Shown: positions 4,574 to 56,562, counted from the first letter of the stretch. The stretch is DNA of 64,000 nt from an uncultured Holophagae bacterium (GCA_963754985.1 CAVWIJ010000006.1:27245-91244); one strand, 5' to 3'. The notes: generated from the letters alone by a model not told the origin. Numbers and translations: made by a program.

Positions 4574-7500
4574 TCACGGCCGGCCACCGCCCGTGGTCGA
4601 GCCGGGTCCTCTCACGGGCGCCGAAAGCTCCTCGACCTCCCTCGCGACAAAGCGGATGAGGAACTCGGTGCCGGGCCCGGCCCCGGTCTCGATCGAACCC
4701 TCGAGCTGCCGCGCCAGCATCTGCACCAGTCGCAGCCCCAGCGAGCGGGCGCGCCGCCAGTCGAGATCGGCCGGCATCCCCACGCCGTTGTCGGCCACCC
4801 GCAGGCGGAGTCGCCCGGTGGCGGGCTCACGCGTCAGACCCACCGTCACCGCACCGCCATCGGATGGGAAGGCGTGCTTGAGCGCGTTGCTGACCAGCTC
4901 GTTCAGGATCAACCCGCACGGAACGGCGGTCGCGACCGACACCGCCACCGGCTCGACCTCGAGATGCAGCTTCACCCGCGCCCCCACCACACCGTGGGCG
5001 CTCCAGATCGACTGCATCAGGCTGGCGATGTAGTCGGCGAAGTTCAGCTTGGCCAGCCCGCCCGACTCGTAGAGCTTCTCGTGGATCAGGGCCATTGACC
5101 GGACCCGGTCCCGCAACTCTCCGAACACCTCGCGAAGGGCAGGGTCCGCGAGTGCGTCAGACTGCAGGCTGACCAGGCTGGAGACGACCTGGAGGTTGTT
5201 CTTCACCCGATGATGGATCTCGCGCAGCAGGAGCTCCTTCTCGGCCAGAGACTCGCGCAGCTGCTGCTCGATCCGCTTGCGCTCGGTGATGTCCTGGGTG
5301 ATGCCGAAGCCGCCGAGCAAGGCACCCTGCGGGTCGAACTCCAGGTACGCCTTCTCCCGCACCCACTTGATCTGCCCGTCCGCGACGATGCGGTGCTCGA
5401 CGTCGTAGGGTTCCCCGCGCAGGCCCGCGTTCCACCTCTCGTCAACGAAATCGCGGTCGTCGGGATGAATGGTCTCGAGGAAGGTCTGATAGCTCAGCGG
5501 AGTCCCCACGGGCACGCCGAAGATGCGGTGGCTCTCGTCGGACCAGGTCAGGACGTTGCGGCGGATGTCCAGCCGCCACCATCCGATCTGTCCGACCTCT
5601 TGAGCACGGTCCAGGTCTTCCCGGCTCTGGCGCAGGGCCTCCTCGGCGAGCTTGCGCGCCGTGATGTCGGTGAAGGCCGTGGCGAAGCGTCCGGGGGCCG
5701 GGGAGTACGCCAATACCTGGTACCAGCGGTCCAAGGCGGCGATATGCCGCTCGAAGCGCTCGCTCTGCCCGGTCTGGGCGACCCGGCCATAGGTCTCGAT
5801 CCAGGACGGCTCGACCGTGGGGATGACCTCGCGCACCGTGCGCCCGAGGATCGAGCGAACGTCGAGCCCGGTCAACCGTCCGAACGCCGGGTTGACCTCC
5901 AGGAAGCGGTAGTCGCAGGGCCGTCCCTGCTCGTCGTCAATCACCTCGTGCAGGGCGAATCCCTCGGCCATCGACTCGAACAGCGTCCGGTAGCGCTCCT
6001 CGCTCGCCCGCAGCGCTTCCTCCGCCTGTTTGCGGTCGGTAATGTCGATGCAGATCCCAGACATGCGCAGCGGTGCGCCGCTGGGGTCATAGCTTGCCTG
6101 GCCGCGAGCATCGATCCAGCGAAGCTCTCCCGACGGCAGCACGATCCGGTACTCGCTCGGCGAGAGGAGTGTGCTTCGCGATGGCTGCCTCGATGCGACG
6201 CTCAGCCGGCTCCCGATCGTCGGGATGCAGCAAGGTCCTCCACACCTCGAAGCTGGGTTCGTCGGCACCGGGATCCAGTCCGAAGAGGCGGAACAGCTCC
6301 TCGGACCACCCGAGCGTGCCGGTGCCCACGTCCCAGTCCCAGATCCCGGCTCCGGCCGAGACCTGCGCGAGCCTCAGGCGCGCGTCGCTCGCGCGCAGAG
6401 CCTGCTCTGCCTCCTTGTTGGCCGTCGTCTCCCAGGCCGCGATGACCAATCCCGGGCCTTCGTCACCAGGCTGCTGAACCCGCTGCATCGACCAGCTGAA
6501 GTACGCCGGCTCCAGCGGGCCGTCCGGCCGCCGGCTGATCATGTTGAGCTCGTCAACGACCTGATGCGGCTCGCCACTCTCCAGGACTCGGCGGCAGATC
6601 GCCGCGAAGTCCTGCCCGGTCTCCGGCCAGATCTCATCGAGGGTCCTGCCCAGCATCTCCTTGCCGGGAGCAATCATCTGGTAGGCCGGGTTGAACAGCT
6701 GCAAGCGCAGATCGCTCCCACGAATCAGGCAGACGGCGGCCGGCATCTGATTGATCACCGTCTCCAGAAGCTGGCGGTGGACGGTCAGCGCCTGCTCGGC
6801 GAGCTTGCGCTCCGTGGTTTCCTCGACGACGATGCTCACCCGGGTGATCCGCCCCTCGGCGTCCGTGATCGGCAACCACTGCTCGAGCCAGCTGCGCCGG
6901 GCGCCCGGCTGGGCGGGCGTCTCGCTGACGACCTCGAGGTCGAAGCAGGGCTGGCCGGTCTCCAGGACGCGGAGCAGTCCCGGCTCCACGGCGTCGGCCA
7001 GCTCCGGCATCACCTCGCGGACTGTCTTGCCGATGTGCTCCGCCGCCGGGATGCCGTTGATCTCGGCCAGCCTCTGGTTGATGCGGATGAACCGGAGCTC
7101 GCTGTCCAGCACGCACATCCCGACCGGGGCGTTGCTGTAAAGGTCCTCCAGCTCCACGAGCCGCAGCCGCGCCAGCGCCTCGGCCTGCTTGCGCGAGTTG
7201 ATGTCGGTCTCCGCGCCCGCCATCCGGACCACCCGCCCGGCTGCGTCGCGGCGGGCCAACCCCCGGTCCGCGACCCACATCCAGGAGCCGTCCTTGCGGC
7301 GGACCCGATACTCTTCGGCGAAGTACGGCGTCCTCCCGTCGAGATGCGCCTGCACGGCCGCCATCACGCGCGGCGCGTCGTCGGGGTGGATCGCCTCGTT
7401 CCAGTCGTTCGCCTCGTCGCCGAGCTCGTCTCCCGCATAGCCTCGCATTGCCTTCCAACGCGACGAGCGGACGATCGTGTTGCCCACGACGTCCCAGTCC

Positions 7501-7643
7501 CAGACCGCGGCATCTGCACCGGCCAGCACGAGCTCGTAGCGCTCGTTGGCCTCGCGAAGGGACTGCTCGGCTGCACTGCGGCCGTCAAGACGCAGCGATC
7601 TCGAGAGCCATGCCCGGATCCGCGAGACGAGATTGTCGGCCAT
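4574..7643 (-). CDS. soluble multi-PAS/PAC sensor histidine kinase (HisKA_2 type); one frameshift near 6160
   Basis: About six PAS/PAC repeats (WDWD..IHPDD..EYR), H-box EIHHRVKNNLQVVSSL, LILNELVSNALKHAF, DNGVG, SLGLRLV; ORFs 6087-7709 and 4574-6268 join as '...KHTPLA/SEYRIVLPSGELRW'. Confidence 0.88.
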
Positions 7644-7878
7644 GCTCCTGGCGGTCCCCTTGTCTCTCTGTACGTGGCTATTCAGGCCCGGGAGTCCCCT
7701 GGCCGTCAAGGTTAGCCCAACGGGTGGCAGCCCGCAATGCGACTGATCTCACTCGAGTGGTCCTTCCCAACCGGTGACGCGTGCCGACCTGCTGGTCCCG
7801 ATGACCGAGGTGTTCTCGGATACGCCGAAGTCAGACCGCGGCGATGAGCGGGGGAGCATCGCGCCGCCGCGCGGCGGC

Positions 7879-19168: not shown

Positions 19169-19438
19169 TTAGCGACCGCGATCGGCGTCCGCACGAGGCC
19201 GCGCGACGCTGACGATGATCGTGCTCCCGTCGAGCTCGGAGCTGTTCTTGGCGCTGATCGCCTTCTCCCCGGACTCGGTGCTCGTGTAGGTGACAAAGGC
19301 GAATCCCCGGGAGGCGCCGGAATCCCGGTCCATGATGACCTTCGCCTCGGTGATCTCACCGTACTCGGAGAAAACCTCGCGCAGTCTGGCGTCGTTGGTG
19401 GCGGCGTTGAGGCCCCCCACATACAGCTTCTGGGTCAT
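19169..19438 (-). CDS. RRM-domain RNA-binding protein (paralog 1)
   Basis: RNP2 KLYVGGL, RNP1 SRGFAFVTY, 'ELDGSTIIVSVARPR'. Confidence 0.93.
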   Translation of the reverse strand: MTQKLYVGGLNAATNDARLREVFSEYGEITEAKVIMDRDSGASRGFAFVTYTSTESGEKAISAKNSSELDGSTIIVSVARPRADADRGR

Positions 19439-19666
19439 GATCGTGTCCTCTTCTTTTCGCGGAAGGCGCCACCGCTGCATGGTGCGCTCCGAGTCGTAAC
19501 GTGACGCGGTGGTTCCATCCGCTCGTATGGGGGTCGGCCACAGCGGCCGGACCAGGGTCGAGTGCCGAGGACAGCGCCTCGGCATCGACCATCACATTCA
19601 CTCACAAGGCTGGGAGCGTGCTCGGACTCCCTCCACGAGGGAGGAAGCTCGGGCTCGCGGCCGGTG

Positions 19667-20326: not shown

Positions 20327-22459
20327 TCAGGAAGGCGCCAGGGGCGGTGGGTCGCGGCGGGGCGGCAACAGGAAGTCGCGCGGCGCGGTGACGAAGCGGC
20401 GGTAGAGGCTGCCGATCAGCGACCTGATTCCGGCGCCCGGCAGCTCGTAGGCGCGCGCGGCGGTCACCAGGGCGAGCAGGAAGCTCACCGACAGGTTGAG
20501 CACGAACATCACCGCGACGCCGGCGAGGCCGCGCAGGAACATCCCCTCGTCGAACCACCCCCGGCCGAGCGAGGAGGTCGCCAGCGACAGCACGCCGCTG
20601 TTGAGCGTGACGTGGCGGACGTCGAGCGGCGCACCGAGGAAGTGGCCGATCGCCGGCGTCATGCCGAGCATGAAGCCGAGCGAGACGTTGGTCGCCCAGC
20701 CGGCCCCATTGCGGGCCAGCGCCTCGCCCCAGCGCGCCATCCGCTCGCGGCCGAGACGCTCGCCTGCCGGGTGCTGCGCGATCGCCAGCGGCAGCCGGTG
20801 GTAGGCGCAGAAGTTGTCGAACCAGCCGCCGACCACGCTCGCGAGCCACAGGATCACCCCGGTAAGGGCGGCGTAGAACACGGTCAGGGAGTTGACCGGG
20901 CTCAAGGCCTTGTAGACCTTCACCGCTTCCGCTTGGCCGAGGAACGGACGCCCGAGGAGCGCGCTCCACAGGAGGACGAAGGCGACCGACCCGGCGCTGA
21001 CCGCGATCAGGTTGGCGGTCACGGCGGCGAGCTGCGAGCGGGAGATCCTCGCCGCGTACTCGGTGATCTCGTGCGCCCGGTCGTCGCCGCGGCGCTCACG
21101 CACGATGGCGGCCAGGGCGGCGCCGGTCATGGCCGGCTGCTTGGTGGCAAGGACGAGCCCGAAGCGCTGCATGAGGAGGAAGCTCACGGCGTAGTTGAGG
21201 CCGTAGACGAGGCCGTGCACGAAGTCCGGCGCGGGCCAGCCCGAGATCGCGGTCTTGATCGCCGCGGTGCCGACGGTGAGCAGGCCGCCCCCGGCGGCGG
21301 CCAGCCAGATGTGACGGTACTCGCTGCGGGTGTTTGCGATGTAGTGCTCGCCGGTGCGCCCCGAGCGCTCGACAATGCGGCGCTGCAGCAGGTGGGTGGT
21401 CCACCAGGTCAGATGGCGCACGCTGCGATCGTCATTGACCGAGCTCGCGAGACGGGCGAACAGGCGGTGCAGCGCCACCGCGGCCTCGCGCTCGCTCGGC
21501 GCAGCCATGATGTCGAGCATCATGGCCATGCGCGTCAGGCTGCGCTCGATCAGCTCCAGACCGTAGACCACGTGGGTGCTGACGCCCTCGCGCTCGATCC
21601 GGCGGTGGATCTCGGCCATCTCCTCCCGGCAACGCTCGCTCTCTCGCCGCCACGCTTCGGCCTCCTCCGCGAGCGGCTGGCCGGCGAGCCAGCGCTCGAC
21701 GACGACCTCGCTGAGCTGGGCGATGCGGTGGAAGGGCGACGCCGTCACCTCGCAGGGCCGGCTGCGCTTGCGCAGCTTGGGCGACAGCCCCTGCGACTTG
21801 GTCCAGGTGGCGAGCAGGCGGAAACCGTCGGCGAACGAGCGGCGGAGGCCCGCCCAAACCTCCGGATGATCGGCAACCGAGTGGAGGCGGACGAATCGCT
21901 CGAACAGCGCCTCGGGCATCTCGTCGAAGCGCTCGACGTCAGCTGCGGATCGGAACAGCCGGCGCAGCAGCGTGGCCAGATCGCGGTCATTGCGCGGCCG
22001 CGGCAGCAGCCGGTCCATGATCCTCTCGCCGAGCTCGGCAAGGAACCCACGCTCGCTCGGGATGCCGGCGTGCCCGAAGACGTTGGTGGCGTCGCTCTCC
22101 TCGAGCACCGAGCGGATGGCGTCCTGGTAGCGGCGGCGCAGCCCTTGGTCGGACTCGAGCAGCGCGAGCGCCGCGTCGAGCCGGCCGCCCCGACGCCGCG
22201 ACCAGAAGTGGCGTCCGGGTGAGCTCTCCGGGTCGTCCCATCCCTCGCGAGCCCAGCGCACCAGCGCCACGACCGCGTCCATGCGCTCGGGCAGCGTGGC
22301 AGCCTCCAGAATGGGCTCGAGGTGCTGGCGCGCGTCGGCGGCGAGCGAGTCGCCCGCCGCACGGTGCGGCAGCGGCGTTTCGCCTCCCGCCTCGGCCGGC
22401 CCGACCCCCGCAACGTCCTGCTGTCCCGGATGACGAACTTCTGGCTTCACGACTCGCAT
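20327..22459 (-). CDS. Gcr/'SpecificRecomb'-family integral membrane protein
   Basis: Family motifs GF..EL..R...LLP, TGEHYIA, AAGGGLLT, LATKQPAMT, SQLAAV.AN, AALTGVILW..S..GGW.DN, LDVRHVTL; start codon uncertain. Confidence 0.8.
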   Translation of the reverse strand: MRVVKPEVRHPGQQDVAGVGPAEAGGETPLPHRAAGDSLAADARQHLEPILEAATLPERMDAVVALVRWAREGWDDPESSPGRHFWSRRRGGRLDAALALLESDQGLRRRYQDAIRSVLEESDATNVFGHAGIPSERGFLAELGERIMDRLLPRPRNDRDLATLLRRLFRSAADVERFDEMPEALFERFVRLHSVADHPEVWAGLRRSFADGFRLLATWTKSQGLSPKLRKRSRPCEVTASPFHRIAQLSEVVVERWLAGQPLAEEAEAWRRESERCREEMAEIHRRIEREGVSTHVVYGLELIERSLTRMAMMLDIMAAPSEREAAVALHRLFARLASSVNDDRSVRHLTWWTTHLLQRRIVERSGRTGEHYIANTRSEYRHIWLAAAGGGLLTVGTAAIKTAISGWPAPDFVHGLVYGLNYAVSFLLMQRFGLVLATKQPAMTGAALAAIVRERRGDDRAHEITEYAARISRSQLAAVTANLIAVSAGSVAFVLLWSALLGRPFLGQAEAVKVYKALSPVNSLTVFYAALTGVILWLASVVGGWFDNFCAYHRLPLAIAQHPAGERLGRERMARWGEALARNGAGWATNVSLGFMLGMTPAIGHFLGAPLDVRHVTLNSGVLSLATSSLGRGWFDEGMFLRGLAGVAVMFVLNLSVSFLLALVTAARAYELPGAGIRSLIGSLYRRFVTAPRDFLLPPRRDPPPLAPS

Positions 22460-22587
22460 CTCCCGGCGGATCGAGCTGCCTCAGGGTAGCAGGCGCACAC
22501 TGGCCGCTGGGTGGCCGGGAGGGTTGGGCATCGGTGCGCTGGATCTGGAGGTTCCCTCGCCTGCGCGGTGTCGAGTACAGTCGCTCC

Positions 22588-27398: not shown

Positions 27399-28124
27399 TC
27401 AGCCGAAGGGGATCTCCTCTCGCTTCCCCTGCACCATGGAGTAGCAGGTGCCGGGCCAGAACCAGGGCTCGTTGCCGGGGCCGTGGACCTGGATGCCGGC
27501 GAGCACCGCCCAGTCGTCCTCGATCGCATCGAGGGTCTGCCCGATCAGCGTCTCGAGGTCCTCGACGATGGCCCGGTAGGCCGCGCCCGTGAGGTCGACC
27601 AGGCTCGGCAGCCGTCCGAACGGCAGCTCGCGCAGCAGCCGCTGCTTGAGCAGGCTGTGCTCGATGTCGCCGGGGTCGGTGCCCAGCGCCACGCGGCCGC
27701 TCTCGAGCTCGCCGAGGAAGGCGCGGAGCGCGCCGCAGGCGTGCGAGGTCCCCGGCCGGCCGATGCGGCTGCAGACGCCGAGCTCGCCGCCGGCGCCGAT
27801 GCCGATGTGGGGGGCGACGAAGAACACGTAGCGCTCGCGGTCGTCCTCGATCGGGGCGTGGCGGCGGGCGGCGGCGAAGCCGGTGCGGCCGACGAGCAGC
27901 AGCCCGGACAGCGCCGAAAAGCCGAAGGGCCACCCCCACAGCGCGTGCACGGCATAGGTCAGGGTGTGGCAGATCTCGTCCCGGCAGACGCCCACGCAGG
28001 CCAGCGTGTTGTCCGGCGAGAAGCCCCGCTCCTGGGTCAGCAGCCGGGAGCTCTCGTCGACGAAGTCCTCCTCGCGCAGCGCTCCCGGGAAGTGCTCCTC
28101 CCTGACCGACTCGAACGACGCCAT
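27399..28124 (-). CDS. LCIB/LCIC-like (theta-type) carbonic anhydrase domain protein
   Basis: FPGAL, 'NTLACVGVCRDE', 'GRTGFAAARRHAP', 'ERYVFFVAPHIGI...GELG...R.G....ACGAL', 'GIQVHGP'; Cys-His-Cys zinc ligand set. Confidence 0.82.
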   Translation of the reverse strand: MASFESVREEHFPGALREEDFVDESSRLLTQERGFSPDNTLACVGVCRDEICHTLTYAVHALWGWPFGFSALSGLLLVGRTGFAAARRHAPIEDDRERYVFFVAPHIGIGAGGELGVCSRIGRPGTSHACGALRAFLGELESGRVALGTDPGDIEHSLLKQRLLRELPFGRLPSLVDLTGAAYRAIVEDLETLIGQTLDAIEDDWAVLAGIQVHGPGNEPWFWPGTCYSMVQGKREEIPFG

Positions 28125-28334
28125 CCATCACCCCCTGCTGCCGCGCGTGAGAGGCCCGTCTGGTGCCCGCAGTGTAGCGTGGCGCGCCCTCCAGACCGGC
28201 ATGAGCGGCGAGGCGCCGGGGCCGCTGAGCCGGCCGCGCGTCGAGAACCGGTGCCCCCCGGACCGCGTATCGTTGGGGTGAGAAGCGGCGGGCGCCGCGC
28301 TGCCGCGGCGCCGCACCGCCGGGAGGGACCGACG

Positions 28335-37682: not shown

Positions 37683-37797
37683 ACGCGGGTCGCAGGCCTC
37701 TGGGTGAGTGTGACGCGTCGCGGTCGCAGGCTGGCCTGCGACCCGCGTGCGCCGAGCGGGATGCGCGCGCTCCGGCGGCGTCGGCTACCATGGGGGC

Positions 37798-39315
37798 GTG
37801 AGCGCGCCGCTGCGCATCGTGGTGACCGGCGCCTCCGGCTTCGTGGGCCGGCTGCTCGTGACGCTGCTCCGGCGCCACCACCACGTCGTCGCCGTCGACC
37901 GGCGCGCGCTCGGCGCGTCGGAGATGGCCGACCACCCGAACGTCGAGTGGTACCAGGTCGACCTCTGCGACCGCGAGGCGGTCGAGGGCACGATGGCCTG
38001 CATCGCGGCCGGCGGCGGCGCGCAGGTGCTGCTCCACCTGGCGGCCTACTACGATTACTCCGGCGAGGAGCACCCGGAGTACCAGCGCACCAACGTCGAC
38101 GCCCTGCGGATCCTGCTCGACGCCGCGCGCCGCCTCTCGCTCGAGCACTTCGTGTTCGTGAGCTCGGTGGCGGCCTGCCCGTTCTCGCGGCCCGGCCACC
38201 CGATCACCGAGGCCACACCGCCGGACGGCGGTCACATCTACGCCCGCACCAAGGCGGCCGGCGAACGCATGCTCGCCGAGCACACCGGGAGCTTCACCCC
38301 GCTCATCGTCCGCCCCGCCGCGCTGTTCTCGGACTGGTGCGAGTACCCGCCGCTGCAGGTGCTGCTCGACACCTGGCTGTCGGGACGATGGGACGCCCGC
38401 ATCCTCGCGGGCCGCGGCGCGTCCGCCATCCCCTACCTGCACGTCCGCGACGCCGCCTTCTTCATGATGCGGCTGCTCGAGCGCCGCCATCAGCTCGCGC
38501 CGCTCGAGGTGCTGATCGCCGGCGAGGACGGGGCGATCTCCCACCTCGATCTCTACCGCGCCGCCACCGCCTACGCCGAGGGCCGTGCCCGCTCGGCAAT
38601 CCACATTCCGCGGCCGCTGTGCAAGCCGGGCATCTGGCTGCGCAACCTGGCCGGCCGCGCCCTCGGCTCGCGGCCCTTCGAGCGGGCATGGATGGCCGAC
38701 TACGTCGACCGGAGGATGGAGATCGACGCGAGCCGGACGAGGCAGCGCCTCGGCTGGTCGCCGAACGAGCGCCTCGGGCTGCTGACCCGGCTGCCGTTCC
38801 TGATCGAGCGCCGGCGCGACAACCCGATGGAGTGGTACCGCCGCAACCGCGAGGCGCTGGAGCACCTGGAGCTCACCCCGAACTTCCGGATCTACCGGCT
38901 GATGAGGCGCTACGAGGAGCAGATCGAGCAGGAGCTCGGCGACGCGCTCCGGCGCCGGCCCCGAACCGCTCCGGCAGGCCCGGCCCTGACGCCCGAGCAG
39001 CGGCTCCGGGATCACCGGGTGACGATCCGCAACCTGCTGGCGTCGGTCCGCACCGGCGACAACGAGCTCTTCGTGAGCTGGTGCGGAGACCTCGCCGAGC
39101 GCAGCGTCGCAAGGGGCCTCGATGAGGACGAGGTCGTCTTCGCGTTGGGCTCGCTCGACTCGATCACGGTCGACACGCTGCGCGCCGACCCGGAGGGGGC
39201 GCCACTCGCGCGATCGCTGCGCGAGCTCGTGAGCACGAGGATCGCCTTCGGCATCGACCGGGTGCTCGAGGTGTACGAGGACGCCAGGGCCTTCGGCGTC
39301 GACCAGGGCCGATGA
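37798..39315 (+). CDS. NAD-dependent epimerase/dehydratase (extended SDR) fused to a C-terminal helical domain
   Basis: VTGASGFVG, HLAAYY, FVSS, catalytic YARTK; extra C-terminal domain of about 150 aa. Confidence 0.88.
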   Translation: MSAPLRIVVTGASGFVGRLLVTLLRRHHHVVAVDRRALGASEMADHPNVEWYQVDLCDREAVEGTMACIAAGGGAQVLLHLAAYYDYSGEEHPEYQRTNVDALRILLDAARRLSLEHFVFVSSVAACPFSRPGHPITEATPPDGGHIYARTKAAGERMLAEHTGSFTPLIVRPAALFSDWCEYPPLQVLLDTWLSGRWDARILAGRGASAIPYLHVRDAAFFMMRLLERRHQLAPLEVLIAGEDGAISHLDLYRAATAYAEGRARSAIHIPRPLCKPGIWLRNLAGRALGSRPFERAWMADYVDRRMEIDASRTRQRLGWSPNERLGLLTRLPFLIERRRDNPMEWYRRNREALEHLELTPNFRIYRLMRRYEEQIEQELGDALRRRPRTAPAGPALTPEQRLRDHRVTIRNLLASVRTGDNELFVSWCGDLAERSVARGLDEDEVVFALGSLDSITVDTLRADPEGAPLARSLRELVSTRIAFGIDRVLEVYEDARAFGVDQGR

Positions 39316-39370
39316 ACAGATCGGAGCCGCTCGGGAAGACAGGCCGGCGCTCCATGGGTTGGAGGATGTG

Positions 39371-40174
39371 ATGTCCTCGACAGCACGCGGTCGCCGGGAG
39401 CGCGCCCTCGCCCTGATCGGCGCCCTGCTCTCCACCACGGCTCTGATCAGCTACTTCACGCTGTCGGTGAGGATCCCGAGCCTGCGCGACAGCGCCTGGC
39501 TCAACCTGCTCGCGGTGGTCGTCGGCCTCGGCCTGTCGATCGCGGCCGTCGCGCGGCGAAGGTCGGTCGTCTCCTCCGCGGGCCTCGCGCTGTCCATCCT
39601 GTGGACGGCGGCGCTGTTCGGCTTCGTTTTCCTGCTCTCCGAGCAGCTCCCGTCGCCGGCGGCAGCCGTCGGGGTCGGCGAGACCGCACCGGCATTCGAG
39701 CTCCCCGACCAAAGCGGGAAGCCGGTCGCCCTGTCGGACTTTGCCGGATCCAAGGTCGTGCTGGTCTTCTACCGCGGGTTCTGGTGACCCTTCTGCCGGT
39801 CGGAGCTGCAGGTCCTGCAGTCGCGCATCACGGATATCAGGGCGGCGGGCGCGGAGCTCGTCGCCATCTCGGCGGACTCGGTGGACGACAATCGGCGGCT
39901 GGTCGAGGGTCTTGGCCTTGGCTTCCCGGTGCTGTCGGACAGCTCGCGCGCGACGATCGCCGCCTACGGGCTGGTCCATCGCGGTGCCGGGCCCGGGGGA
40001 GCCGACATCGCGCGACCCGCTACCCTGCTCGTCGGCCGCGACGGGACCGTGCAGTGGCGCCACCTGACCGAGAACTGGCGGGTCCGCGTCAGTCCGGACG
40101 CCATCGTCGCCGCGGTCTCGGAGGCGGCACACGAGCCGCAGCCCGGCCCGAGCGTCACGCCCGATCAGGACTGA
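39371..40174 (+). CDS. membrane-anchored peroxiredoxin-like (AhpC/TSA) selenoprotein with UxxC motif; in-frame TGA at 39785-39787
   Basis: Three TM helices, VGETAPAFELPDQSG.PV.LSDF.G..VVLVFYRGFW-TGA-PFCRSEL; same frame continues to ELVAISAD, FPVLSD, ARPATLLV..DG.V.W and stops at 40174. Confidence 0.88.
39788..39825 (+). promoter_or_regulatory. bacterial SECIS element
   Basis: Hairpin GCTGCAG-GTC-CTGCAGT (39805-39821) begins 17 nt after the TGA; resembles the E. coli fdhF SECIS apical stem-loop UGCAGGUCUGCA. Confidence 0.75.
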
Positions 40175-47050: not shown

Positions 47051-47186
47051 GCCTCCAGCATGCCACGGCGGCGCCCGTCCGCAAGCGCCGGCAGGGAGGC
47101 CGGCGCCGGGCGGCTCCGGGCGGAGAGCCATTGACGAGCCTGCCACCGCGCGCCCAGACTAGCGGACGCGTGGCAGGGAGGCCGGA

Positions 47187-48644
47187 ATGATCGTGCGTTG
47201 CGCCGTCGTCCTTTGCATGGCCGCGGCCGCCGCCGGCTGCTCGAGCCTCGGGCCGCGCGGCCTGACCGCCGCGTCGCCGGTGCCCGAGGCGCCCGAGCGC
47301 CCGTCGCAGCTCAGCCCGCCGGCCCCTCCCGAGATGCCGAGCCCGGTGATCCCCGAGCACCTGCTCGAGGAGGGCGCCACCTTCACCCTCGCCGACGTGG
47401 TCGACATCGCGCTGCGCAACAACCCGGTGACCAGGACCGCCTGGCTGGAGGCGCTCTCCGCAGCGGCCGAGCTCGGCAGCACGCGCTCGGCCTACTACCC
47501 GCGCCTCGACCTGACGATCGACGCCACGCGCACCCAGCAGAGCGCCCTGGGTGGACAGTTCGATTTTCTCCAGACCAGCTACGGACCGACCGTCGACCTG
47601 AGCTGGCTGGTGCTCGACCTCGGCGGGCGCGCCGCCGACGCCGAGGACGCGCGGCTCGGCCTGCTGGCCGCCGACTGGACGCACAACGCCGTGGTCCAGA
47701 ACGTGATCCTCGCCGTGCAGCAGACCTTCGTCGCCGTACCTCAACGCCAAGGCCCAGCTCGAGGCCGCCCGGACCAACGTGGCTCAGGCCCAGACCGCCC
47801 TCGACGCCGCCGAGGCGCGGCACGACGCCGGGCTCGCGACCATCGCCGAGGTGCTCCAGGCGAAGACGGCGCTGTCCCAGGAGCAGCTCGCGGTCGACCG
47901 GCTGTCGGGGTCAGGTGCTGGCTCTGCGCGGCGCCCTGGCCACCGCGATGGGCCTGCCCGCCTCCACGCCGTACGACGTCGGCAATCTCCCCGCCGACCT
48001 GCCGCTCGCAGCTCGCCACCGCGACGGTCGAGGAGCTCATCGAGGAGGCTCGAGCCGCCAGGCCCGACCTCGCGGCGGCCCGGCTCGAGGCCGAGCAGGC
48101 GGCCGCCCGCATCCGCTCGGCCCGGGCGCAGGGCCTGCCGATGCTGTCGCTGGGGGCGAGCGCGAGCCGGATCTACTACGACCCTGCGACCTACGCCGAC
48201 TACGGCGACAGCTGGTCGGCGCGCCTGATGCTCGGCGTGCCGCTGTTCACCGGGTTCGAGACCAAGTACAACACCGAGAAGGCGAAGCAGGACGCCGCCG
48301 CGTCGGCCTCCCGCGCCGACACCCTCGAGCAGCAGGTGATCCTCGAGGTGTGGACCAGCTACTACGGCCTCAAGACCGCGACCCAGCTCGTGAGCACGAC
48401 CCGCGACCTGCTCGCCAGCGCGGAGCAGTCGGAGCGGGTGGCGATGGGGCGCTACCGGGAGGGGGTCGGCACCATCCTCGACCTGCTCGCGGCGCAGTCG
48501 GCGCTCGCCGACGCGCGCGCCGAGGAGATCCTCGCCAGGTCCTCGTGGTTCTACGCGCTGGCGCAGCTCGCTCACGACACCGGCGTCGCCTCGCCGACTC
48601 TCCAGGCCACGGTGGCCGTCATCGAAGAGAAGGAAAGCCCATGA
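47187..48644 (+). CDS. TolC-family outer-membrane efflux lipoprotein; frameshifted
   Basis: Lipobox AAGC; TLADVVDIALRNNP; RPDLAAAR; VPLFTG; RYREGVGTILDLLAAQ. Confidence 0.9.
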   Translation: MIVRCAVVLCMAAAAAGCSSLGPRGLTAASPVPEAPERPSQLSPPAPPEMPSPVIPEHLLEEGATFTLADVVDIALRNNPVTRTAWLEALSAAAELGSTRSAYYPRLDLTIDATRTQQSALGGQFDFLQTSYGPTVDLSWLVLDLGGRAADAEDARLGLLAADWTHNAVVQNVILAVQQTFVAVPQRQGPARGRPDQRGSGPDRPRRRRGAARRRARDHRRGAPGEDGAVPGAARGRPAVGVRCWLCAAPWPPRWACPPPRRTTSAISPPTCRSQLATATVEELIEEARAARPDLAAARLEAEQAAARIRSARAQGLPMLSLGASASRIYYDPATYADYGDSWSARLMLGVPLFTGFETKYNTEKAKQDAAASASRADTLEQQVILEVWTSYYGLKTATQLVSTTRDLLASAEQSERVAMGRYREGVGTILDLLAAQSALADARAEEILARSSWFYALAQLAHDTGVASPTLQATVAVIEEKESP

Positions 48645-49856
48645 CACAGCGATCGATCGGTGCGCTCGTTCCGGCCGCCGGATCCCGCTCCCGGCACCCC
48701 GCGCGGCAGGCCGCGTCGCGGCTCGCCGCGGCCGTCGCGGCGGGCTCGTCCTGGCGCTCGCGGCCGGCGGCTGCGGCCGCTCCGGCACGGACGCAGCAGG
48801 GCAGGCCGGCCGCCGGTCCCGGTGACCGTGGGCACGGTCGAGCAGAAGACCGTGCCGGTCAGCTTCCGCGCCATCGGCAACGTCGAGCCGATCGAGACGG
48901 TCGCGGTGAGGGCCCGCATCGGCGGCGAGCTGCAGCGGGTCTGCTTCGACGGAGGGCCAGACCGTCCGCGCCGGGCAGACCGCTGTTCGCGATCGACCCC
49001 CGCCCCTACCGCGCGGCGCTCGCCCAGGCCGAGGCGCAGCTCGCCCGAGACCAGGCGCTGCTCGCCAAGGCCGAGGCCGACATCGCGCGCTACGCCGACC
49101 TCGTCAAGCAGGACTACGTCACCAAGGAGCAGTACGACCAGATCACGCGCCAACGCCGCGGCGCTGCGGGCCGCGGTCGCGGCCGACCAGGCCACCGTCG
49201 AGACCGCCCGGCTCAACCTCGACTACTGCACGATCCGCTCGCCGGTCGCCGGGCGCACCGGCAACGCTCATCGTCAAGGTCGGCAACCTGGTCAAGGCGA
49301 ACGACGACCAGCCGCTGGTCACCATCAACCAGATCCGCCCGATCTACGTCGCCTTCTCGGTGCCGGCGCAGCTGCTGCCCGCGGTGATCGCGCGCGCCGC
49401 GCCGGGATCGATCCAGGTCGTGGCGTCGCGTGCCCGGCGAGCCGACGCCGGCGGCCGAGGGACGCTTGACGCTTCGTCGACAACGCCGTCGACGCCGCGA
49501 CCGGCACGATCCTGCTCAAGGCCACCTTCGCCAACGAGGACGAGCGCGCTCTGGCCGGGCGCAGTTCGTCGACGTGACGGTCATCGCTGGGCGAGGAGCC
49601 GGACCGCGTCGTCGTGCCCGGCGGCGGCCGTCCAGACCGGCCAGCAGGGCCAGTACGTCTTCGTCGTCAAGCGCCGACCGGACGGTCGAGCTGCGGCCGG
49701 TGCAGGTCGCCCGGCATGGACGAGCGACGAGGCGGTCATCGCCGAGGGCCTCGCGGCCGGCGAGACGGTCGTCACCGACGGCCAGCTCCGGCTGGTGCCG
49801 GGGGCCGCGATCGAGGTCAAGGAGCCGGCGAGGCCGCGCGGGGACGCGAGCCATGA
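48641..49856 (+). CDS. RND efflux periplasmic adaptor (MdtA-like); many frameshifts
   Basis: AIGNVEPIETVAVRARIGGEL, LFAIDPRPY, LNLDYCTIRSPVAGRTG, DNAVDAATGTILLKATF.N, GLAAGETVVTDGQ; ATGA overlaps at both ends. Confidence 0.85.
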
Positions 49857-52800
49857 ACATCTCCGAGCTCTTCATCCGCCGGCCGGTCATGACCACGCTC
49901 GTCATGGCCGGGCATCCTGCTCTTCGGCATCATGGCCTACCGGCTGCTGCCGGTCAGCGACCTGCCGAACGTGGACTTCCCGACCATCTCGGTCGTCGGC
50001 CGTCGCTGCCCGGGCGCCAGCCCGGAGACGATGGCCTCGTCGGTGGCGACGCCGCTCGAGAAGGCAGTTCTCGACCATCGCCGGCATCGACTCGATGACC
50101 TCGTCGAGCTCGCTCGGGCACGCACCCAGATCACGCTCCAGTTCGCCCTCGACCGCGACATCGACGCCGCCGCCCAGGACGTGCAGGCGGCCATCGCCCG
50201 CGCCAGCCGGCAGCTGCCGCCGGACATGCCGTACCCCGCCCTCCTACCAGAAGGTCAACCCGGCCGACCAGCCGATCCTCTTCCTCGCCCTGACCTCGCC
50301 GACGCTGCCGCTGTCCGCGCTCGACGAGTACGGCCGAGACCATGATCGCCCAGCGCATCTCGACGGTCAGCGGGCGTGGCCCAGGTGCAGGTCTACGGCT
50401 CGCAGAAGTACGCCGTGCGCATCCAGCTCGACCCGCGCGCGCTGGCCACGCCGCGGCATCGGCATCGACGAGGTCGTCGCGCGCCGTCCAGGCCGGCCAA
50501 CGTCAACCTGCCGACCGGCATCCTGTACGGCCCGGACAAGGCCTTCACCGATCCAGGCCGACCGGCCAGCTCACCGACGCCGCGGCCTACCGGCCGCTCG
50601 ATCGTCGCCTACCGCAACGGCCCGCCGGTCCGCCTCGAGCGAGCTCGGCACGCGTCGTCGACAGCGTCGAGAACGACAAGACCGCCGCCTGGTTCATCGA
50701 CCAGCGCGGCGATCGTCCTGGCGGTCCAGCGCCAGCCCGGCACCAACACCGTCGCGGTCGCGCGACGCGGTCAAGGCGCTGCTGCCGACCTTCCGCGCGC
50801 AGCTGCCGGCCTCGCGTGTCGACTGCACGTCCTGTTCGACCGCTCGCGAGTCGATCCACGAGTCGGTCAACGACGTCAAGTTCACCCTGCTGCCTCACCC
50901 TGGTCCTGGTCGTGCTGGTGATCTTCCTCTTCCTGCGCAACCTCTCGGCCACCGTCATCCCGCGCCTGGCGCTGCCGATGTCGATCGTCGGCACCTTCGC
51001 CGTCATGTACCTGCTCGGCTACAGCCTCGACAACCTGTCGCTGATGGCGCTGACGCTGTCGGTCGGCTTCGTCGTCGACGACGCCATCGTCATGCTCGAG
51101 AACATCGTCCGCCACATGGAGATGGGCAAGACGCCGCTCGCAGGCGGCGCTCGACGGCTCGCGCGAGATCGGCTTCACCATCGTCTCGATGACGCTGTCG
51201 CTGGCCGCGGTCTTCATCCCGGTCCTGTTCATGGGCGGCATCGTCGGCCGGCTGTTCCGCGAGTTCGCGGTCACCATCGGCGTCGCGGTCCTGATCTCGG
51301 GCTTCGTCTCGCTGACGCTGACGCCGATGCTCGTCGCAGCCGCTTCCTGCGGCCGCCGCGCGAGGTCCAGCACCACGGCGGCTCTACAACGCCTTCGAGC
51401 GCGTCTTCGCCGGCGATGCTGCGGCGTCTACGAGCGCGGGCCTGCGGCTGGTCGCTCGCGCCACCGGCGCGACCATGGTGCTGCTCACGCTCGGCGATCA
51501 CTGGCCGCCACCGTCGTGCTGTTCGTGATCGATCCCCAAGGGCTTCCTCCCCAGCGAGGACATCGGCCAGCATCTTCGGCCAGACCGAGGCGGCCGAGGG
51601 CATCTCCTTCGACGCCATGGTGCGAGCACCAGCAGGCGGTCGCCGCGGTCGCTCGCGCAGCCGACCCGAACGTCGAGGCGTTCATGTCCATCGGCCGGCG
51701 GCCGCGGCGGCATGGGCGGCGGCAACACCGGGCATCTTCTTCATCCGCCTCAAGCCGCGCGCCGAGCGCGAGCTCACCGCCGACGAGGTCGTCGAGCGAG
51801 CTGCGGCCGAAGCTCGCCGCAGGTGCCCGGGCATCCGCGTCTTCCTCCAGAACCCGCCGCCGATCCAGCATCGGCGGCCGCATGACCCGGAGCCAGTACC
51901 AGTTCACCCTGCAGGGCCCGGACACCGACGAGCTCTACCGCGTACGCGCCCGCTGCTCGAGGCACGAGCTGCGCGCCCTGCCCGGCTGTCAGGACGTCAC
52001 CACGCGACCTGCAGCTCAAGAACCCGCAGGTCAACGTCGAGATCGACCGCGACCAGGCCGCCGGCGCTCGGCGTCACCGCCGCAGCAGATCGAGGAGGCG
52101 CTGTACACCGCCTACGGCTCGCGCCAGATCTCGACCATCTACGCGCCCAACAACCAGTACCGGGTGATCCTGGAGCTGCTGCCCGAGTACCAGACGCGAC
52201 CCCGCCGCCCTGTCGCTGCTCTACGTCCGCTCGCTCGAGCGGCGAGCTGGTGCCGCTCGACGCGCTGGTCGACGCTCGACGCCGGGCGTCGGCCCGCTGA
52301 CGGTCAACCACTCGGGCCAGCTGCCCGTCGGTGACGCTCTCGTTCAACCTCGCGCCCGGGCGTCTCGCTCGGCGAGGCCGTCGCCGCGGTCGAGCAGCTG
52401 GCGCGCGAGACGCTGCCCGCCACCGATCAGCGACCAGCTTCCAGGGCACGGCGCAGGCGTTCCAGTCGTCGCTGCAGGGGCTCGGGCTGCTGCTGGTGCT
52501 GGCGATCCTGGTCATCTACATGGTGCTCGGCATCCTCTACGAGAGCTTCATCCACCCGCTCACGATCCTGTCGGCGCTGCCGTTCGCCGGCTTCGGCGCG
52601 CTGCTGACGCTGCTGCTCTTCGGCGTCGAGCTCACCATCTACGCCTTCGTCGGCATCATCATGCTGGTCGGCCTGGTGAAGAAGAACGGCATCATGATGA
52701 TCGACTTCGCGCTCGAGGCGCAGCGCAACGGAGGGCAAGACGCCCGCGCGACGCGATCTACGAGGCCTGCCTGATCCGCTTCCGGCCGATCATGATGACC

Positions 52801-53029
52801 ACGATGGCGGCGCTGATCGGCACGCTGCCGATCGCGCTCGGCTTCGGCGCCGGCGCCGAGGCGCGCCGCCCGCTCGGCCTGGCGGTGGTCGGCGGCCTGC
52901 TCTTCTCGCAGTCGCTGACGCTCTTCGTGACGCCGGTGTTCTACATCTACATGGAGTCGCTGCAGGCGCAAGCTCGGCCGCTGGCTGTGGTTCCTCGGCG
53001 GCCGGACGCACGAGACGCCGGCGGCCTGA
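49853..53029 (+). CDS. RND efflux permease (MdtB/C-like); heavily frameshifted
   Basis: [105 protein letters not shown]. Confidence 0.92.
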
Positions 53030-53038
53030 GGATGCGAA

Positions 53039-53067
53039 GGCGGCCCGGGCAGCGAGCCCGGGCCGCC
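53039..53067. terminator. hairpin between convergent RND and cytochrome genes
   Basis: GGCGGCCCGGGC-AGCGA-GCCCGGGCCGCC 12-bp stem. Confidence 0.6.
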
Positions 53068-53072
53068 CGACT

Positions 53073-55998
53073 TCACTGGGACACGATCGCCACCGGCACC
53101 GTGATCGGGTCGCCGGTGGCGCGGCTGACCACCGAGGCGTAGGCCCACACCCGGGCGCCACCCGTCATCACTTCGACCGTCGCCCACGCCACCGGCACGT
53201 CGCCCGGAGCGATCATCGAGAGGATGTCGTTGATCTGGCGCCACTGGCCGGCCGGCACCACACTCCCTCGCACGCCCGAGCAGGCCACCGTCGGACCCGT
53301 ACACGAGACGCGCACCGTCGCCTCGATCTCCGACGAGTTGAGGAAGCCGACGTTGGTCCGGTAGTCGGCGTCGCGGGCAATCCCCGCCAGCACGCCGAGC
53401 TGGCCCTGCTCGAGGCACTGCCCCTGCTGGACGGCCGGGAAGTACTGGCCGTAGCTGCCGAGCGGGGACAGGTTGTAGGTGCGCGAGACCACTACCAGCT
53501 CGCCGGTGGCCTCGATGTGCAGGGCACCGGTCGAGCTGCGGCTGAGCCCGAGCAGAGACACCATCACGTCGTCGTAGCGCACGGTCTCGCCGGGGGCGAG
53601 GGACACCGGCGCGGTGGTCGACTGCGACCCGTCGAGATAGGTCAGGGTCACATCGACGCCCGCAGCGTGCGGGTTGAGGAGCACGAGGTCGGTGCGCCAC
53701 ACCGAGCCCTCGGCGCCGGGGGCGTGCGAGGCGACCAGGACCGCGCTCCAGGCCGCTCCGCCGGCCGGCCCGATCGAGATCGTCCCGGTCGAGCTGCAGC
53801 TCGCGCCGTCGGCGGTCGCGGTGAGGGTCCAGTCGTAGCTTCCCGGCGTGCCGTAGGCGTGGCTGACCTGCGCGCCGTGGCCGGTCTCGCCGTCGCCGAA
53901 GTCCCAGGTCAGCGCCGGCGTCTCGGTGCAGCCACTCGGCGTGACGGTGCCGACGAAGCTCACCAGCGCGCCCGCCGGCGCGCTCGCCGGGGCCGACGCC
54001 GAACACTCGAGGGTGCAGGCCGAGCCGGCGACGGTCAGGGTGACGTGGCCGAGGTTGGAGTCGGCCATGCCGTCCCAGGCGGCGAAGGTGAAGCTGTCAG
54101 CTCCGTTGAAGCCGGGGAACGCGCGATACCAGGCGGTCCGGCCGACCATCCACGCGACGCCCGCCGCCGGCTGCGACACCACGCGCAGGGTGAGGGTGTC
54201 ATTGTCGGCGTCGGTCGCCGTCAGCGGAATGGAGACCGCCACGTTCGCCGTCGCGGAAGCCGCGGCATCGACCACCACCGGCGCGTGGTTCGGGCTCGGC
54301 GACTCGCTCGCCGGGCCCGTTGTGGCAGGTGTAGCAGCCGATCTGGAAGCCGCGCCAGAAGTGCTTGGTGCCGAACGTCGGTCGTGAGGGTGCGGTCGCC
54401 CTGGGATCGCGACAGCACGGTGCCGCGGTAGTCGGTGCCGTGGCAGGCGCGGCAGGACTCCTGGGTCACCTTGGCCGCCGTCTTCGTGGTCGTCGACCCA
54501 GCCCTGGCCGACCGGGTGCATGCCGTGCGGGCCGCCGCTGGTCGTGCTCGGCGTCGTGCCGTGGCAGGCGGCGCACTCGGCGAGCAGCCCGGCGTGCCCC
54601 TGGACGTGCTGCGCTCTGGACGTTGTCGTTGACGTGCGACGACGGGGAACTCGGCGTGCGTCGAGCCGTGGCAGGCCTCGCACTGCAGGCCGCCGTGGCC
54701 GATCGAGAAGCGGTAGAGCGAGAAGCCCGCCGCCGGCGTGTCGGGGTTGGTGGCGAAGGTGTCGTCGGCCGGCTGCCGCGCACGCTCCGCGGTCGTCGAA
54801 CGCCGAGGTGTAGCGGATCTGGCCGCTGTTGCGGATCGCGGTGCCGGTGTGGCAGTTCTGGCAGGTCGGCTCGCTCGAGCCAGCCGGTGCGGCCGGCGGC
54901 GCCGACCGTCGCTCATGTCGCCGTGGCAGCTCTGGCACTGCATCGCCAGTCGTCGCCGTCGGCGGCCACCGCGCTGCCCATCGCGCCGCGCAGGCAGCGG
55001 GTCGCGGAGCCGGGGTGGCAGCGGTAGCAGGCGGAGCGGTTGTCGGAGTCGCCGAGGGTGCAGCGCCGGTCGTCGGGTCGATGACGCGCGGCGTGGCAGG
55101 CGTGGACCGACCGCGGTCAGCGGCGGGACGCCCGGCGACGCCGGTGCCCGGGAGCGCGTCGGAGGCGTGGCAGCGCGGCGCAGAGGATCGGCGTGCCGCC
55201 GCGTCGACCGTCGGCGTAGAGCCCGCTGCGGGTCGTAGCCGACGCCGCGAGCGCGGCCGCCTGGAACGCGGGCTGGCGGCCGCGGCTGCTCGTCGTGCAG
55301 GCGGAGGATGTTCAGCCGGTAGTCGCGCTCCGGGTCGGGGTCGTTGACCCAGCCGGCGGCGGGCTGGGCCGCCGGGCGAGCTGCCCGAGGCGTGGCAGGC
55401 GCGGCAGTCCATCTCGTCGGAGACCGGCAGCACGATGTCGGTGGTCGCGAGCATCGCGCCCGCGCCGTCGCGCGCCGACCAGGCGCATCATCGGGTAGGG
55501 GTTCTTGCGCTGCCGGCATCGTCGTAGGGCGTGATCGGGATGCCCTCGGCGCTGAACCAGCTGCTGGTCGCGCGTCGCAAGGTCATCGCCTGCGGCGTGT
55601 TGGCGGCGCCCGGCATGGCGCAGCCGGCGAGCCCCTCGTCGGCCGGCGAGCGACGACGCCGAAGAGCGCTCGCGACGTGGTCCCAGAAGTTGGTCTTGCC
55701 CGACCGACGTCGTGTTGATCGAGCCGGCGGGATCGGCGCACCGCCTCGTAGGTGACGCGTGATCCCGGCCGGGTTGGTCACGAGCTGCCCGTCGGCGTCG
55801 ATCGAGCTGGGCGTGGATGGTGTTGTAGGGCGGCAGGATGGCGAACACCGAGAAGTCCGCGTCCATGCAGTGCATGCCGAGGTTGTTCCAGCCGATCAGG
55901 GTATAGCCGACAGGCGCGGCTCCAGCAGCCCCTCCGCTCAACATCCAGGCGAGAAGCGTCGATCCAAGAGCGATTGCAGTTGTCGTGCGCCGATGCAT
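53073..55998 (-). CDS. secreted nine-heme c-type cytochrome with Ig-like, PKD and C-terminal anchor-like domains; heavily frameshifted
   Basis: Signal peptide; [23 protein letters not shown]; CxxCH at about 55400, 55175 (1-nt insertion), 55020, 54930, 54855, 54675, 54567, 54447, 54329; NHAPV..L.ATDADND.L; WDFGDG..SHAY..PG.Y. Confidence 0.85.
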
Positions 55999-56562
55999 GG
56001 TGGCCTCCCCCGCTGCGTTGTGTCCGTGTGCCGCGGCCGCGCCTGTCGCGAACGTCTGCAGCCGCAAGCGTTATCTGAGAAAACCAGGCCCTAGCATACG
56101 CCCACTTGCGATCGCGGAGGTCGCCATCGGAGCTCTCGTCACCCGAGACGAGGCGGCGCGTTGTCGCCGTGATCAACGCCGCGGGCAGCGATGGCGGAGC
56201 GGAAGTCCGTCCGGTTGATCGGCGTTGGCGAGGCACGCGACCTCGGCGAGGCGTGCTCAATCGACCGCCACAGGGTCAGGGTCGCCCGGGTCATTCTGTG
56301 ACCCTGGTCCTAGCCGCAAACGAGATCACGTATCAAATTCTTCACTGCCCGGCCCGGGTGGACCGCCAGGTCCGCGGCCCGCCCGCCAATGCCAGGGGAA
56401 GCGGAGGATGCGATGGTCCGCAGCGTCGCACAAGCCAGCGACCAACGCAGATCCGGCGGGATGGCAGGCCCGGGCAGCGCGCGCTCCCCGCCGCGCCACA
56501 CACGACCGGCGAAACGCCCGATCACCTCAATACAGATCCCATCAGCCCGGGAGGAACCGTCA

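Follow-up and report, generated by a model that had tools for sequence, protein, structure and literature searches.

An apparent selenoprotein gene for a membrane-anchored, peroxiredoxin-like UxxC oxidoreductase in DNA from an uncultured Holophagae bacterium

A stretch of 64,000 nucleotides from an uncultured Holophagae bacterium (GCA_963754985.1 CAVWIJ010000006.1:27245-91244; the whole stretch is called the window here) was analyzed for a gene at positions 39371-40174 that is interrupted by an in-frame TGA. With a probability of roughly 0.85, this region is one intact gene for a selenocysteine (Sec)-containing, membrane-anchored peroxiredoxin-like oxidoreductase. The original prediction, made from the window alone, had proposed a true Sec protein; comparison of related loci strongly supports the reading of 39785-39787 as Sec, with TGA at this codon in 78 of 80 loci, conserved coding downstream and a conserved hairpin with compensatory changes. 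The gene represents a variant architecture within an already known selenoprotein family; it occurs widely across several phyla, and its annotation is systematically wrong.

The single plus-strand frame 39371-40174 contains one internal stop, TGA at 39785-39787, in the codon context TTC TAC CGC GGG TTC TGG TGA CCC TTC TGC. A standard listing of open reading frames (ORFs) splits this frame into two pieces, 39359..39787 and 39881..40174, as expected from the earlier claim that one gene is split at a single TGA. Reading through yields a product of 267 aa, ...VVLVFYRGFW-U-PFCRSEL..., in which residue 139 is U; the frame ends with another TGA at 40172-40174. The gene is laid out as follows.

39361..39365, plus strand: Shine-Dalgarno-like GGAGG, spaced 5 nt from the ATG at 39371
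39371..40174, plus strand: predicted complete selenoprotein gene of 267 codons, one of them an internal UGA (Sec139), followed by the terminal TGA (Pfam AhpC-TSA across the TGA; 80 related loci)
39785..39787, plus strand: UGA predicted to be read as selenocysteine, U139 (frame, alignments, locus codons)
40172..40174, plus strand: true terminator TGA (TGA is the usual stop in the window)

The placement of the internal TGA is far beyond chance. It stands, as had been claimed, at the first Cys of FYRG.W-C-P.C, where Cys-type homologues carry Cys. In a six-frame scan of the window, no in-frame stop other than 39785-39787 was flanked on both sides by coding-type codon bias, in agreement with the statement that other breaks in the window are not in-frame stops. 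The 128 intact codons after the TGA have a G+C content at third codon positions (GC3) of 0.89 and a codon bias as in real genes; G+C is about 70% throughout the window. TGA terminates 25 of the 31 Pfam-supported ORFs in the window, and the selenoprotein gene too, and is thus a normal terminator, which shows that the genetic code is not reassigned. Genome-wide reassignment of TGA was rejected on these counts and on the finding of only one such in-frame stop.

Species-representative genomes were scanned with the peptide pattern [VLI][LV]VFYRG[FHY]W, which lies upstream of the Sec codon and was based on an alignment of eight sequences. At least 599 stretches were obtained; 596 of them encode relatives, and 80 loci were kept. 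The codon at the Sec site is TGA in 78 loci and TGC in two (L033 and L067), a share of Sec that the pattern overstates, as explained below, whereas TAA and TAG were not found. The alternation of Cys and TGA codons postulated for the homologues was thus recovered, and TGA, far from being absent in close homologues, predominates among these loci. According to their record titles, the loci belong to Acidobacteriota, Planctomycetota, Verrucomicrobiota, Myxococcota, Methylomirabilota, Pseudomonadota and others.

The frame remains open for 93-142 codons past the TGA in all related loci. Mean identity to the window, determined for 77 loci after leaving out L021, L052 and L070 as frameshifted or incomplete, amounts to 30% over the membrane part, 49% over residues 96-138 and 46% over residues 140-250. 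With 46% after and 49% before the TGA, the downstream part is as constrained as the upstream part. At one of the loci left out (L021:10406-10780) the TGA is present and the C-terminal half is frameshifted, with the conserved ...DGTISWRSLTENWRVRVRPE... in another frame, as in a pseudogene or after an assembly indel.

A quick maximum-likelihood tree was calculated from 92 rows comprising the window, the 77 loci and 14 database proteins. The window is placed beside loci titled Thermoanaerobaculia and Sulfomarinibacteraceae (Acidobacteriota), and no branch with a Shimodaira-Hasegawa-like approximate likelihood ratio (SH-aLRT) value of at least 95 encloses it. L033 and L067, the two loci with TGC, are nested in TGA clades with SH-aLRT 99 each. 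Both retain a hairpin of the type of the selenocysteine insertion sequence (SECIS) at L033:2696 and L067:4296, namely CUGCAG/CUGCAG and GAGCUCCAA/UUGGAGCUU, and look like recent Sec-to-Cys replacements with a 'fossil' SECIS. Elsewhere in the tree, a copy on a contig titled Nevskia soli (Pseudomonadota) is almost identical to a copy from a Bryobacteraceae (Acidobacteriota) bin (L051/L076, branch lengths 0.026 and 0.069), which suggests a mis-binned contig or a very recent transfer.

Furthermore, protein databases were searched with a word-indexed method (94 matches) and exhaustively against 1.84 billion cluster representatives, of which the best 150 were considered. The word-indexed search returned one close match, P0002 (157 aa), which has the same membrane N-terminus and stops exactly at ...VFYRGFW. 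Seven database proteins end exactly at FYRG[FHY]W and are 42-81% identical (P0002, P0096, P0100, P0143, P0181, P0211 and P0221); the closest database relative, P0096, is 138 aa long, 81% identical and stops exactly at the TGA site. Seven further database fragments begin just past the redox motif. No close full-length read-through record was present among the best 150 representatives or the 94 word-indexed matches. Position 139 is Cys in 12 and Ser in 2 of 14 aligned full-length three-helix database forms, as read from protein records in which the DNA is not visible, and soluble relatives of about 204-220 aa with about 40% identity carry W-C-P-Y-C. In the Atlas, queried with a natural Cys-form homologue, several clusters of 'hypothetical proteins' (124-183 aa; Acidobacteriota and Planctomycetota) resemble the membrane part; with scores of 0.76-0.79 these are leads only.

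The TGA is followed by a hairpin with a short loop.

39805..39821, plus strand: SECIS-type hairpin GCUGCAG-GUC-CUGCAGU, 7 bp, loop GUC (folding, family comparison, fdhF comparison)

The hairpin CTGCAG-GTC-CTGCAG that had been described about 18 nt past the TGA was found at 39806-39820, with CTGCAG at 39806-39811, GTC at 39812-39814 and CTGCAG at 39815-39820; the first CTGCAG starts 18 nt after the TGA. With an additional G-U pair (39805/39821) the stem reaches 7 bp and starts 17 nt after the UGA. Nucleotides 9-48 after the UGA were compared in 81 sequences, i.e. the 80 loci and the window. A perfect stem of at least 5 bp occurs in all 81, and one of at least 7 bp in 55, as compared to about 8% of shuffled sequences. 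In 37 sequences including the window ('window-type') the stem lies at about +21 to +38, and all of these have G as the first or second nucleotide of the loop.

The register of the window is shared by 27 of the 37 window-type sequences: standard pairs fill 86% of their cells, as compared to 5-39% after a shift of the 3' partners by 1-3 columns. RNAalifold predicted the same 7 pairs for these 27 sequences. Compensatory variation was seen at pair 27-31 (GC 12, AU 10) and at pair 21-37 (AU 12, GC 7, GU 5). The other 10 window-type sequences have, in this place, perfect inverted repeats of different sequence (GCUCCAA/UUGGAGC, GCUCGCCG/UGGCGAGC, GCUCCGA/UCGGAGC), and codon choice and even downstream residues covary with these alternative stems.

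The SECIS of Escherichia coli fdhF (NC_000913.3) is likewise a short G+C-rich hairpin just past the UGA whose apical loop contains G and U, and it reads ...GGUUGCAGGUCUGCACC... after the UGA. The 8-nt apical core UGCAGGUC is identical in both. The two differ in the loop, which consists of 3 nt (GUC) in the window and of GGUC in fdhF, and in the position of the loop G, which is at +28 from the U of UGA in the window as compared to +23 in fdhF; furthermore, no bulged U is evident in the window hairpin. The earlier label 'fdhF-like' is a fair one, given the common core and a loop G that lies 5 nt further from the UGA. In the accessible text of PMC1088965, a SECIS is described as a hairpin directly past the UGA with a small apical loop containing G; the window gene conforms to this description with its 7-bp stem, the loop GUC and compensatory changes among its relatives.

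The remaining 44 sequences, mostly from Pyrinomonadaceae and other Acidobacteriota (L016, L022, L023, L025, L027, L028 and 38 more), carry a second type of element, CUGCAACUCCGAGUUGCGGAG, at nt +9 to +30. Two mutually exclusive hairpins are possible in this element, CUGCAACU/AGUUGCGG with the loop CCG or CUCCG/CGGAG with the loop AGUUR, either of which may serve as the SECIS; some changes (C-G to U-A in L030 and L040) are compensatory for the CUGCAACU/AGUUGCGG hairpin.

The product of the read-through frame contains a redoxin domain with its active-site motif at the TGA.

39674..40057, plus strand: AhpC/TSA (peroxiredoxin-like, thioredoxin-fold) domain, residues 102-229 (PF00578; PDB profile matches)
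39785..39796, plus strand: redox motif U-P-F-C, U139...C142 (read-through, alignments)

Pfam family PF00578 (AhpC-TSA) matched residues 102-229, a range that spans the TGA, with an E-value of 5e-32 and 110.9 bits against a cut-off of 26. In the 92-row alignment C142 is invariant and position 139 nearly invariant. The nearest solved structures by family profile are BCP/PrxQ 2cx3 (3.1e-32), the peroxiredoxin-like protein 2ywn (1.1e-29), Mycobacterium tuberculosis AhpE 1xvw (7.2e-28) and ResA 3c71 (2.9e-21). In these alignments C142 falls on the peroxidatic Cys (Cp) of peroxiredoxins, U139 on their Thr/Ser and Arg135 on their Pro, which identifies the site as thioredoxin-like UxxC and not as peroxiredoxin TxxC. 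The canonical peroxiredoxin signature P-x3-T/S-x2-Cp is absent, the Cp position (C142) alone being retained, and HMMER aligned the Arg of the R-P-A motif of the family one position before the BCP Arg. NCBIfam gave 18 matches, all of them far under their cut-offs. ResA scored best with 58.7 versus 170 bits, and the cut-offs were also not reached for the SelL-related redox protein (48.6 versus 120), PrxU (37.3 versus 270), WAxxUGC (35.6 versus 300), TlpA (31.9 versus 230) and DsbE (23.2 versus 123). The deiodinase_rel model gave an E-value of 0.0082 and 15.6 versus 250 bits.

A UGA, a SECIS and a UxxC redoxin together are textbook knowledge, and the gene adds no new principle. Following the established bacterial mechanism, the hairpin at 39805-39821 would be bound by SelB-GTP-Sec-tRNA(Sec) while the ribosome stands at the UGA about 20 nt upstream of it; Sec would then be inserted without termination and a protein of 267 aa would result. 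This protein would be anchored in the inner membrane by three N-terminal helices, its N-terminus probably lying on the cytoplasmic side and its redox domain on the periplasmic side. As judged from fold and motif, the U139-x-x-C142 center would cycle between selenolate/thiol and selenenylsulfide; U139 would make the nucleophilic attack, as Sec does in thioredoxin-like UxxC selenoproteins. It may reduce oxidized thiols or hydroperoxides at the membrane surface and would be re-reduced by a partner protein.

The membrane part of the protein is predicted to be organized as follows.

39404..39463, plus strand: predicted membrane helix 1, residues ~12-31, preceded by RGRRER (hydropathy windows, family conservation)
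39464..39496, plus strand: loop 1, residues 32-42, with the P-x-L/T-R-D-x-x-W-x-N motif, predicted outside (alignment, family profile)
39497..39553, plus strand: predicted membrane helix 2, residues ~43-61, followed by RRR (62-64), which is predicted to be cytoplasmic (hydropathy, family)
39566..39637, plus strand: predicted membrane helix 3, residues ~66-89 (hydropathy)

Hydropathy windows contained three hydrophobic segments, as the original prediction had it. Its further remark that such an N-terminus is unusual did not hold: the three-helix domain is the rule for a large subfamily and not peculiar to the window gene. The best-conserved motif of the membrane part is located in loop 1, where P36, L38, R39, D40, W43 and N45 are invariant in the eight-sequence alignment. 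In the window protein, the N-terminus has four Lys and Arg residues (K+R), loop 1 has two K+R and one Asp, and the loop before helix 3 reads RRRS. Over the 81 members, this 5-residue loop before helix 3 has on average 3.56 K+R and 0.41 Asp and Glu (D+E), and loop 1 has 1.53 K+R and 1.0 D+E. By the positive-inside rule, this charge distribution assigns the N-terminus and loop 2 to the cytoplasm and loop 1 and the redoxin domain to the outside, in line with the earlier suggestion that the redox domain may lie outside the cytoplasm. Judged by hydropathy and charge, the N-terminus is probably cytoplasmic, and the redox domain probably faces the periplasm on the outer side of the inner membrane. 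The membrane part is free of Cys in 56 of the 81 members, which makes a thiol relay through the membrane unlikely; DsbD and CcdA are known for such a relay.

The same selenoprotein might have its redox domain in the cytoplasm if helix 1 did not span the membrane or the N-terminus were outside, an arrangement that we regard as unlikely, though far from negligible. Helix 1 is indeed the weakest hydrophobic segment (maximum Kyte-Doolittle mean 1.82), and the nearest soluble relatives (about 220 aa, WCPYC, without a membrane segment) have no export signal in the alignment. However, the loop preceding helix 3 is the most basic segment of the family, with 3.56 K+R as compared to 1.53 in loop 1, and the positive-inside rule sends helix 3 from inside to outside regardless of helix 1.

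Several observations weigh against the reading of the gene as a functional, outward-facing selenoprotein gene. Neither selA, selB, selD nor a tRNA-Sec gene was found in the 64-kb window with Pfam on 39 ORFs, Rfam, ARAGORN and tblastn. With E. coli SelA, SelB and SelD as queries, tblastn gave no match in the window and one weak GTPase-domain match in L007 (E 3e-4). ARAGORN, applied to 1.19 Mb of window and locus flanks, found no tRNA-Sec and only one tRNA-Ala; the window itself is without a tRNA. The hairpin of the window folds no better than dinucleotide shuffles, with z-scores of the minimum free energy of -0.15 for a 71-nt and -0.23 for a 46-nt stretch; 84 of 200 and 72 of 200 shuffles, respectively, folded at least as well, and a perfect stem of at least 7 bp arose in 8% of the dinucleotide shuffles of the window stretch. 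Taken alone, the window hairpin is not statistically unusual in DNA with 70% G+C. Rfam gave no match to any SECIS or tRNA-Sec model at gathering score in the window, and a permissive Rfam scan of 151 nt returned one chance match only (E 5.4, opposite strand).

Additionally, RNAalifold predicted no pairs for the mixed alignment of all 37 window-type sequences, in which 72% of the cells are paired, because the stems stand in three registers. Four of the seven stem pairs in the window register are invariant and lie inside conserved Leu-Gln codons; part of the stem conservation is therefore due to coding, and these pairs are uninformative either way. The ratio of 78 TGA to 2 TGC loci is biased, since Sec-type fragments were the source of the scan pattern and Cys forms frequently have G[SA]W in place of G[FHY]W, so that the share of Sec is overstated. 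The genome of the window was itself not among the genome matches, and the best locus is 55% identical. Probable indel damage elsewhere in the assembly indicates that its base-level quality is imperfect. Finally, we infer both topology and substrate from sequence features.

Some of these points would be expected if the gene were a relic of a lineage that had lost Sec decoding, in which translation halts at the TGA and gives a 138-residue membrane fragment or nothing useful. The lack of Sec machinery in the 64-kb window, the broken-looking reading frames elsewhere in it and the frameshifted C-terminal half of the relative L021 fit such a history. We nevertheless consider it improbable, since the 128 codons after the TGA are intact with a GC3 of 0.89 and an identity to relatives of 46%, equal to that of the upstream part, and the hairpin is intact as well; lineages that abandon Sec at this site show TGC instead (L033, L067). 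Still less probable is that the TGA arose in a Cys-type gene, whether through faulty sequencing or assembly or through a recent nonsense mutation. TGA is one base away from TGC or TGT and the assembly may carry errors, but TGA is present at this codon in 78 of 80 independent genomes, P0096 with 81% identity stops exactly there too, and the apparent errors elsewhere are frame shifts and not substitutions. Gene finders predict exactly two genes here, one for a small membrane protein that ends at the TGA and one for a C-terminal redoxin fragment that starts independently from GTG 39881, and both kinds of fragment exist in databases. This reading is hardly credible, because the split would cut the thioredoxin fold at the active site, the redox motif would be lost from both products as the downstream ORF does not begin until 32 codons past the TGA, the Pfam domain extends across the junction and full-length Cys forms exist.

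The predicted selenoprotein was compared with known systems. In the accessible parts of the papers cited here, Prx-like thiol:disulfide oxidoreductase selenoproteins (PF00578, UxxC/UxxU) are 'predicted with high confidence' (PMC13188914, Table 1; PMC9312934) and are described as distant homologues of peroxiredoxins in which a thioredoxin-like UXXC replaces TXXU (PMC1088965). 'Prx-like 1' comprises 225 sequences (PMC2398784, Table 2), and for Acidobacteria four selenoproteins of three families are given (PMC1794560, Table 2). Family membership follows from the same domain plus the same Sec motif (PMC9312934). The window gene shares with this class the PF00578 domain, a UxxC motif with Sec in first position and the existence of Cys-containing homologues, and by domain and motif it belongs to the class. 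It differs in that its subfamily has a conserved 95-residue three-helix N-terminus with the P-x-x-R-D-x-x-W-x-N loop, which sets it apart from the class as described in those parts of the papers. No description of a Prx-like selenoprotein with a membrane domain was found in the openly accessible literature that was searched.

The redoxins TlpA, ResA and CcmG (DsbE) are similar in being membrane-tethered, having a thioredoxin fold with a W-C-x-x-C-type motif and facing outward, as predicted here, and ResA is the best NCBIfam match. ResA and TlpA have a single anchor helix; in contrast, the window family has three helices and Sec in place of Cys, and its score is far below the ResA cut-off. The peroxiredoxins BCP/PrxQ and AhpE are closest among solved structures by sequence and align their peroxidatic Cys with C142, but their signature Pro and Thr/Ser are replaced by Arg135 and Sec139 in the window protein. 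The soluble Cys-type 'peroxiredoxin-like family proteins' (P0003-P0039), which we take to be PRX_like2 of CDD, are about 40% identical over the redoxin domain and have the same FYRGxWCPxC context, but they lack the membrane domain, carry Cys and not Sec, and contain an extra insertion past the conserved G-L-V segment. Eukaryotic iodothyronine deiodinases are, according to the accessible text of PMC11592359, also membrane-anchored selenoenzymes with a thioredoxin/peroxiredoxin-like core. This is an analogy only, as family membership is not detectable (deiodinase_rel below cut-off) and kingdom and substrate are different.

Standard gene calling turns the gene into two, one for a 'hypothetical' membrane protein of 138-142 aa and one for a redoxin fragment that lacks its head. 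Such splitting seems to have occurred in many public genomes, as seen from the truncated database representatives and the Atlas clusters. Since no NCBIfam model reaches its cut-off, the selenoprotein is unrecognized in at least 78 species-level genomes of several phyla and the use of selenium is under-counted there. If the domain faces outward, a selenol would be located on the outer face of the inner membrane, which is uncommon among thiol-type bacterial selenoproteins, and Acidobacteriota-like bacteria would have in this protein a concrete candidate for the redox defence of their envelope. It is conceivable, although doubtful, that the three-helix module with its outward P-x-x-R-D-x-x-W-x-N loop is more than an anchor and holds the selenol at the outer membrane surface. 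The family might then form a widespread, uncurated class of extracytoplasmic membrane selenoenzymes of soil and sediment phyla (Acidobacteriota, Planctomycetota, Verrucomicrobiota, Myxococcota, Methylomirabilota) whose members repair oxidized lipids of the membrane or oxidized thiols of the periplasm and correspond in function to the membrane-associated selenoenzymes of eukaryotes.

By its gene content the window is Gram-negative and Acidobacteriota-like, with genes for, among others, Kelch and FG-GAP proteins, a sigma-54 activator, an extracytoplasmic function (ECF) sigma factor and an outer-membrane efflux protein. Clustering of the ORFs within 7 kb across the 81 loci revealed no family-wide partner gene; DoxX_2/MauE-like, YCII, glyoxalase and ECF-sigma genes recur in 9-13 of the 81 loci only. 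A relationship of the membrane domain to the DoxX_2/MauE-like neighbor, which lies just upstream in 10 loci, was rejected (hhalign probability 0.4%). No cytochrome-maturation or CcdA/DsbD genes were found near the selenoprotein gene. Its neighbors in the window, an epimerase gene upstream and an S15 peptidase gene downstream, recur in none of the related loci. The upstream gene (37747-39315, plus strand, i.e. the same strand, with a 55-nt gap) encodes a protein in which an NAD-dependent epimerase/dehydratase domain (residues ~35-260) is followed by ~260 C-terminal residues that match no known family.

Further observations concern other parts of the window. Downstream of the outer-membrane efflux gene (47163-48644), an AcrB/RND-type transporter region (48600-56400) is without a long ORF. 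Its high-GC3 signal changes frame every few hundred bases, and a 157-aa ORF (52301-52774) alone matches PF00873, at profile positions 847-952; the region looks like one with multiple frameshifts, due to a pseudogene or to assembly indel errors. At 4574-7748 on the minus strand, overlapping stop-to-stop ORFs in different frames both contain PAS, and the downstream ORF also HisKA_2 and HATPase; this may be either one frameshifted sensor kinase or two adjacent genes. Two proteins of families that are uncommon in bacteria are also encoded on the minus strand, an LCIB/C-type beta-carbonic anhydrase homologue (27399-28127; PF18599, 4e-47) and a small RRM-domain RNA-binding protein (19169-19591; PF00076). 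A protein of the PF10136 'site-specific recombinase' family (2e-175) is encoded at 20327-22480, likewise on the minus strand.

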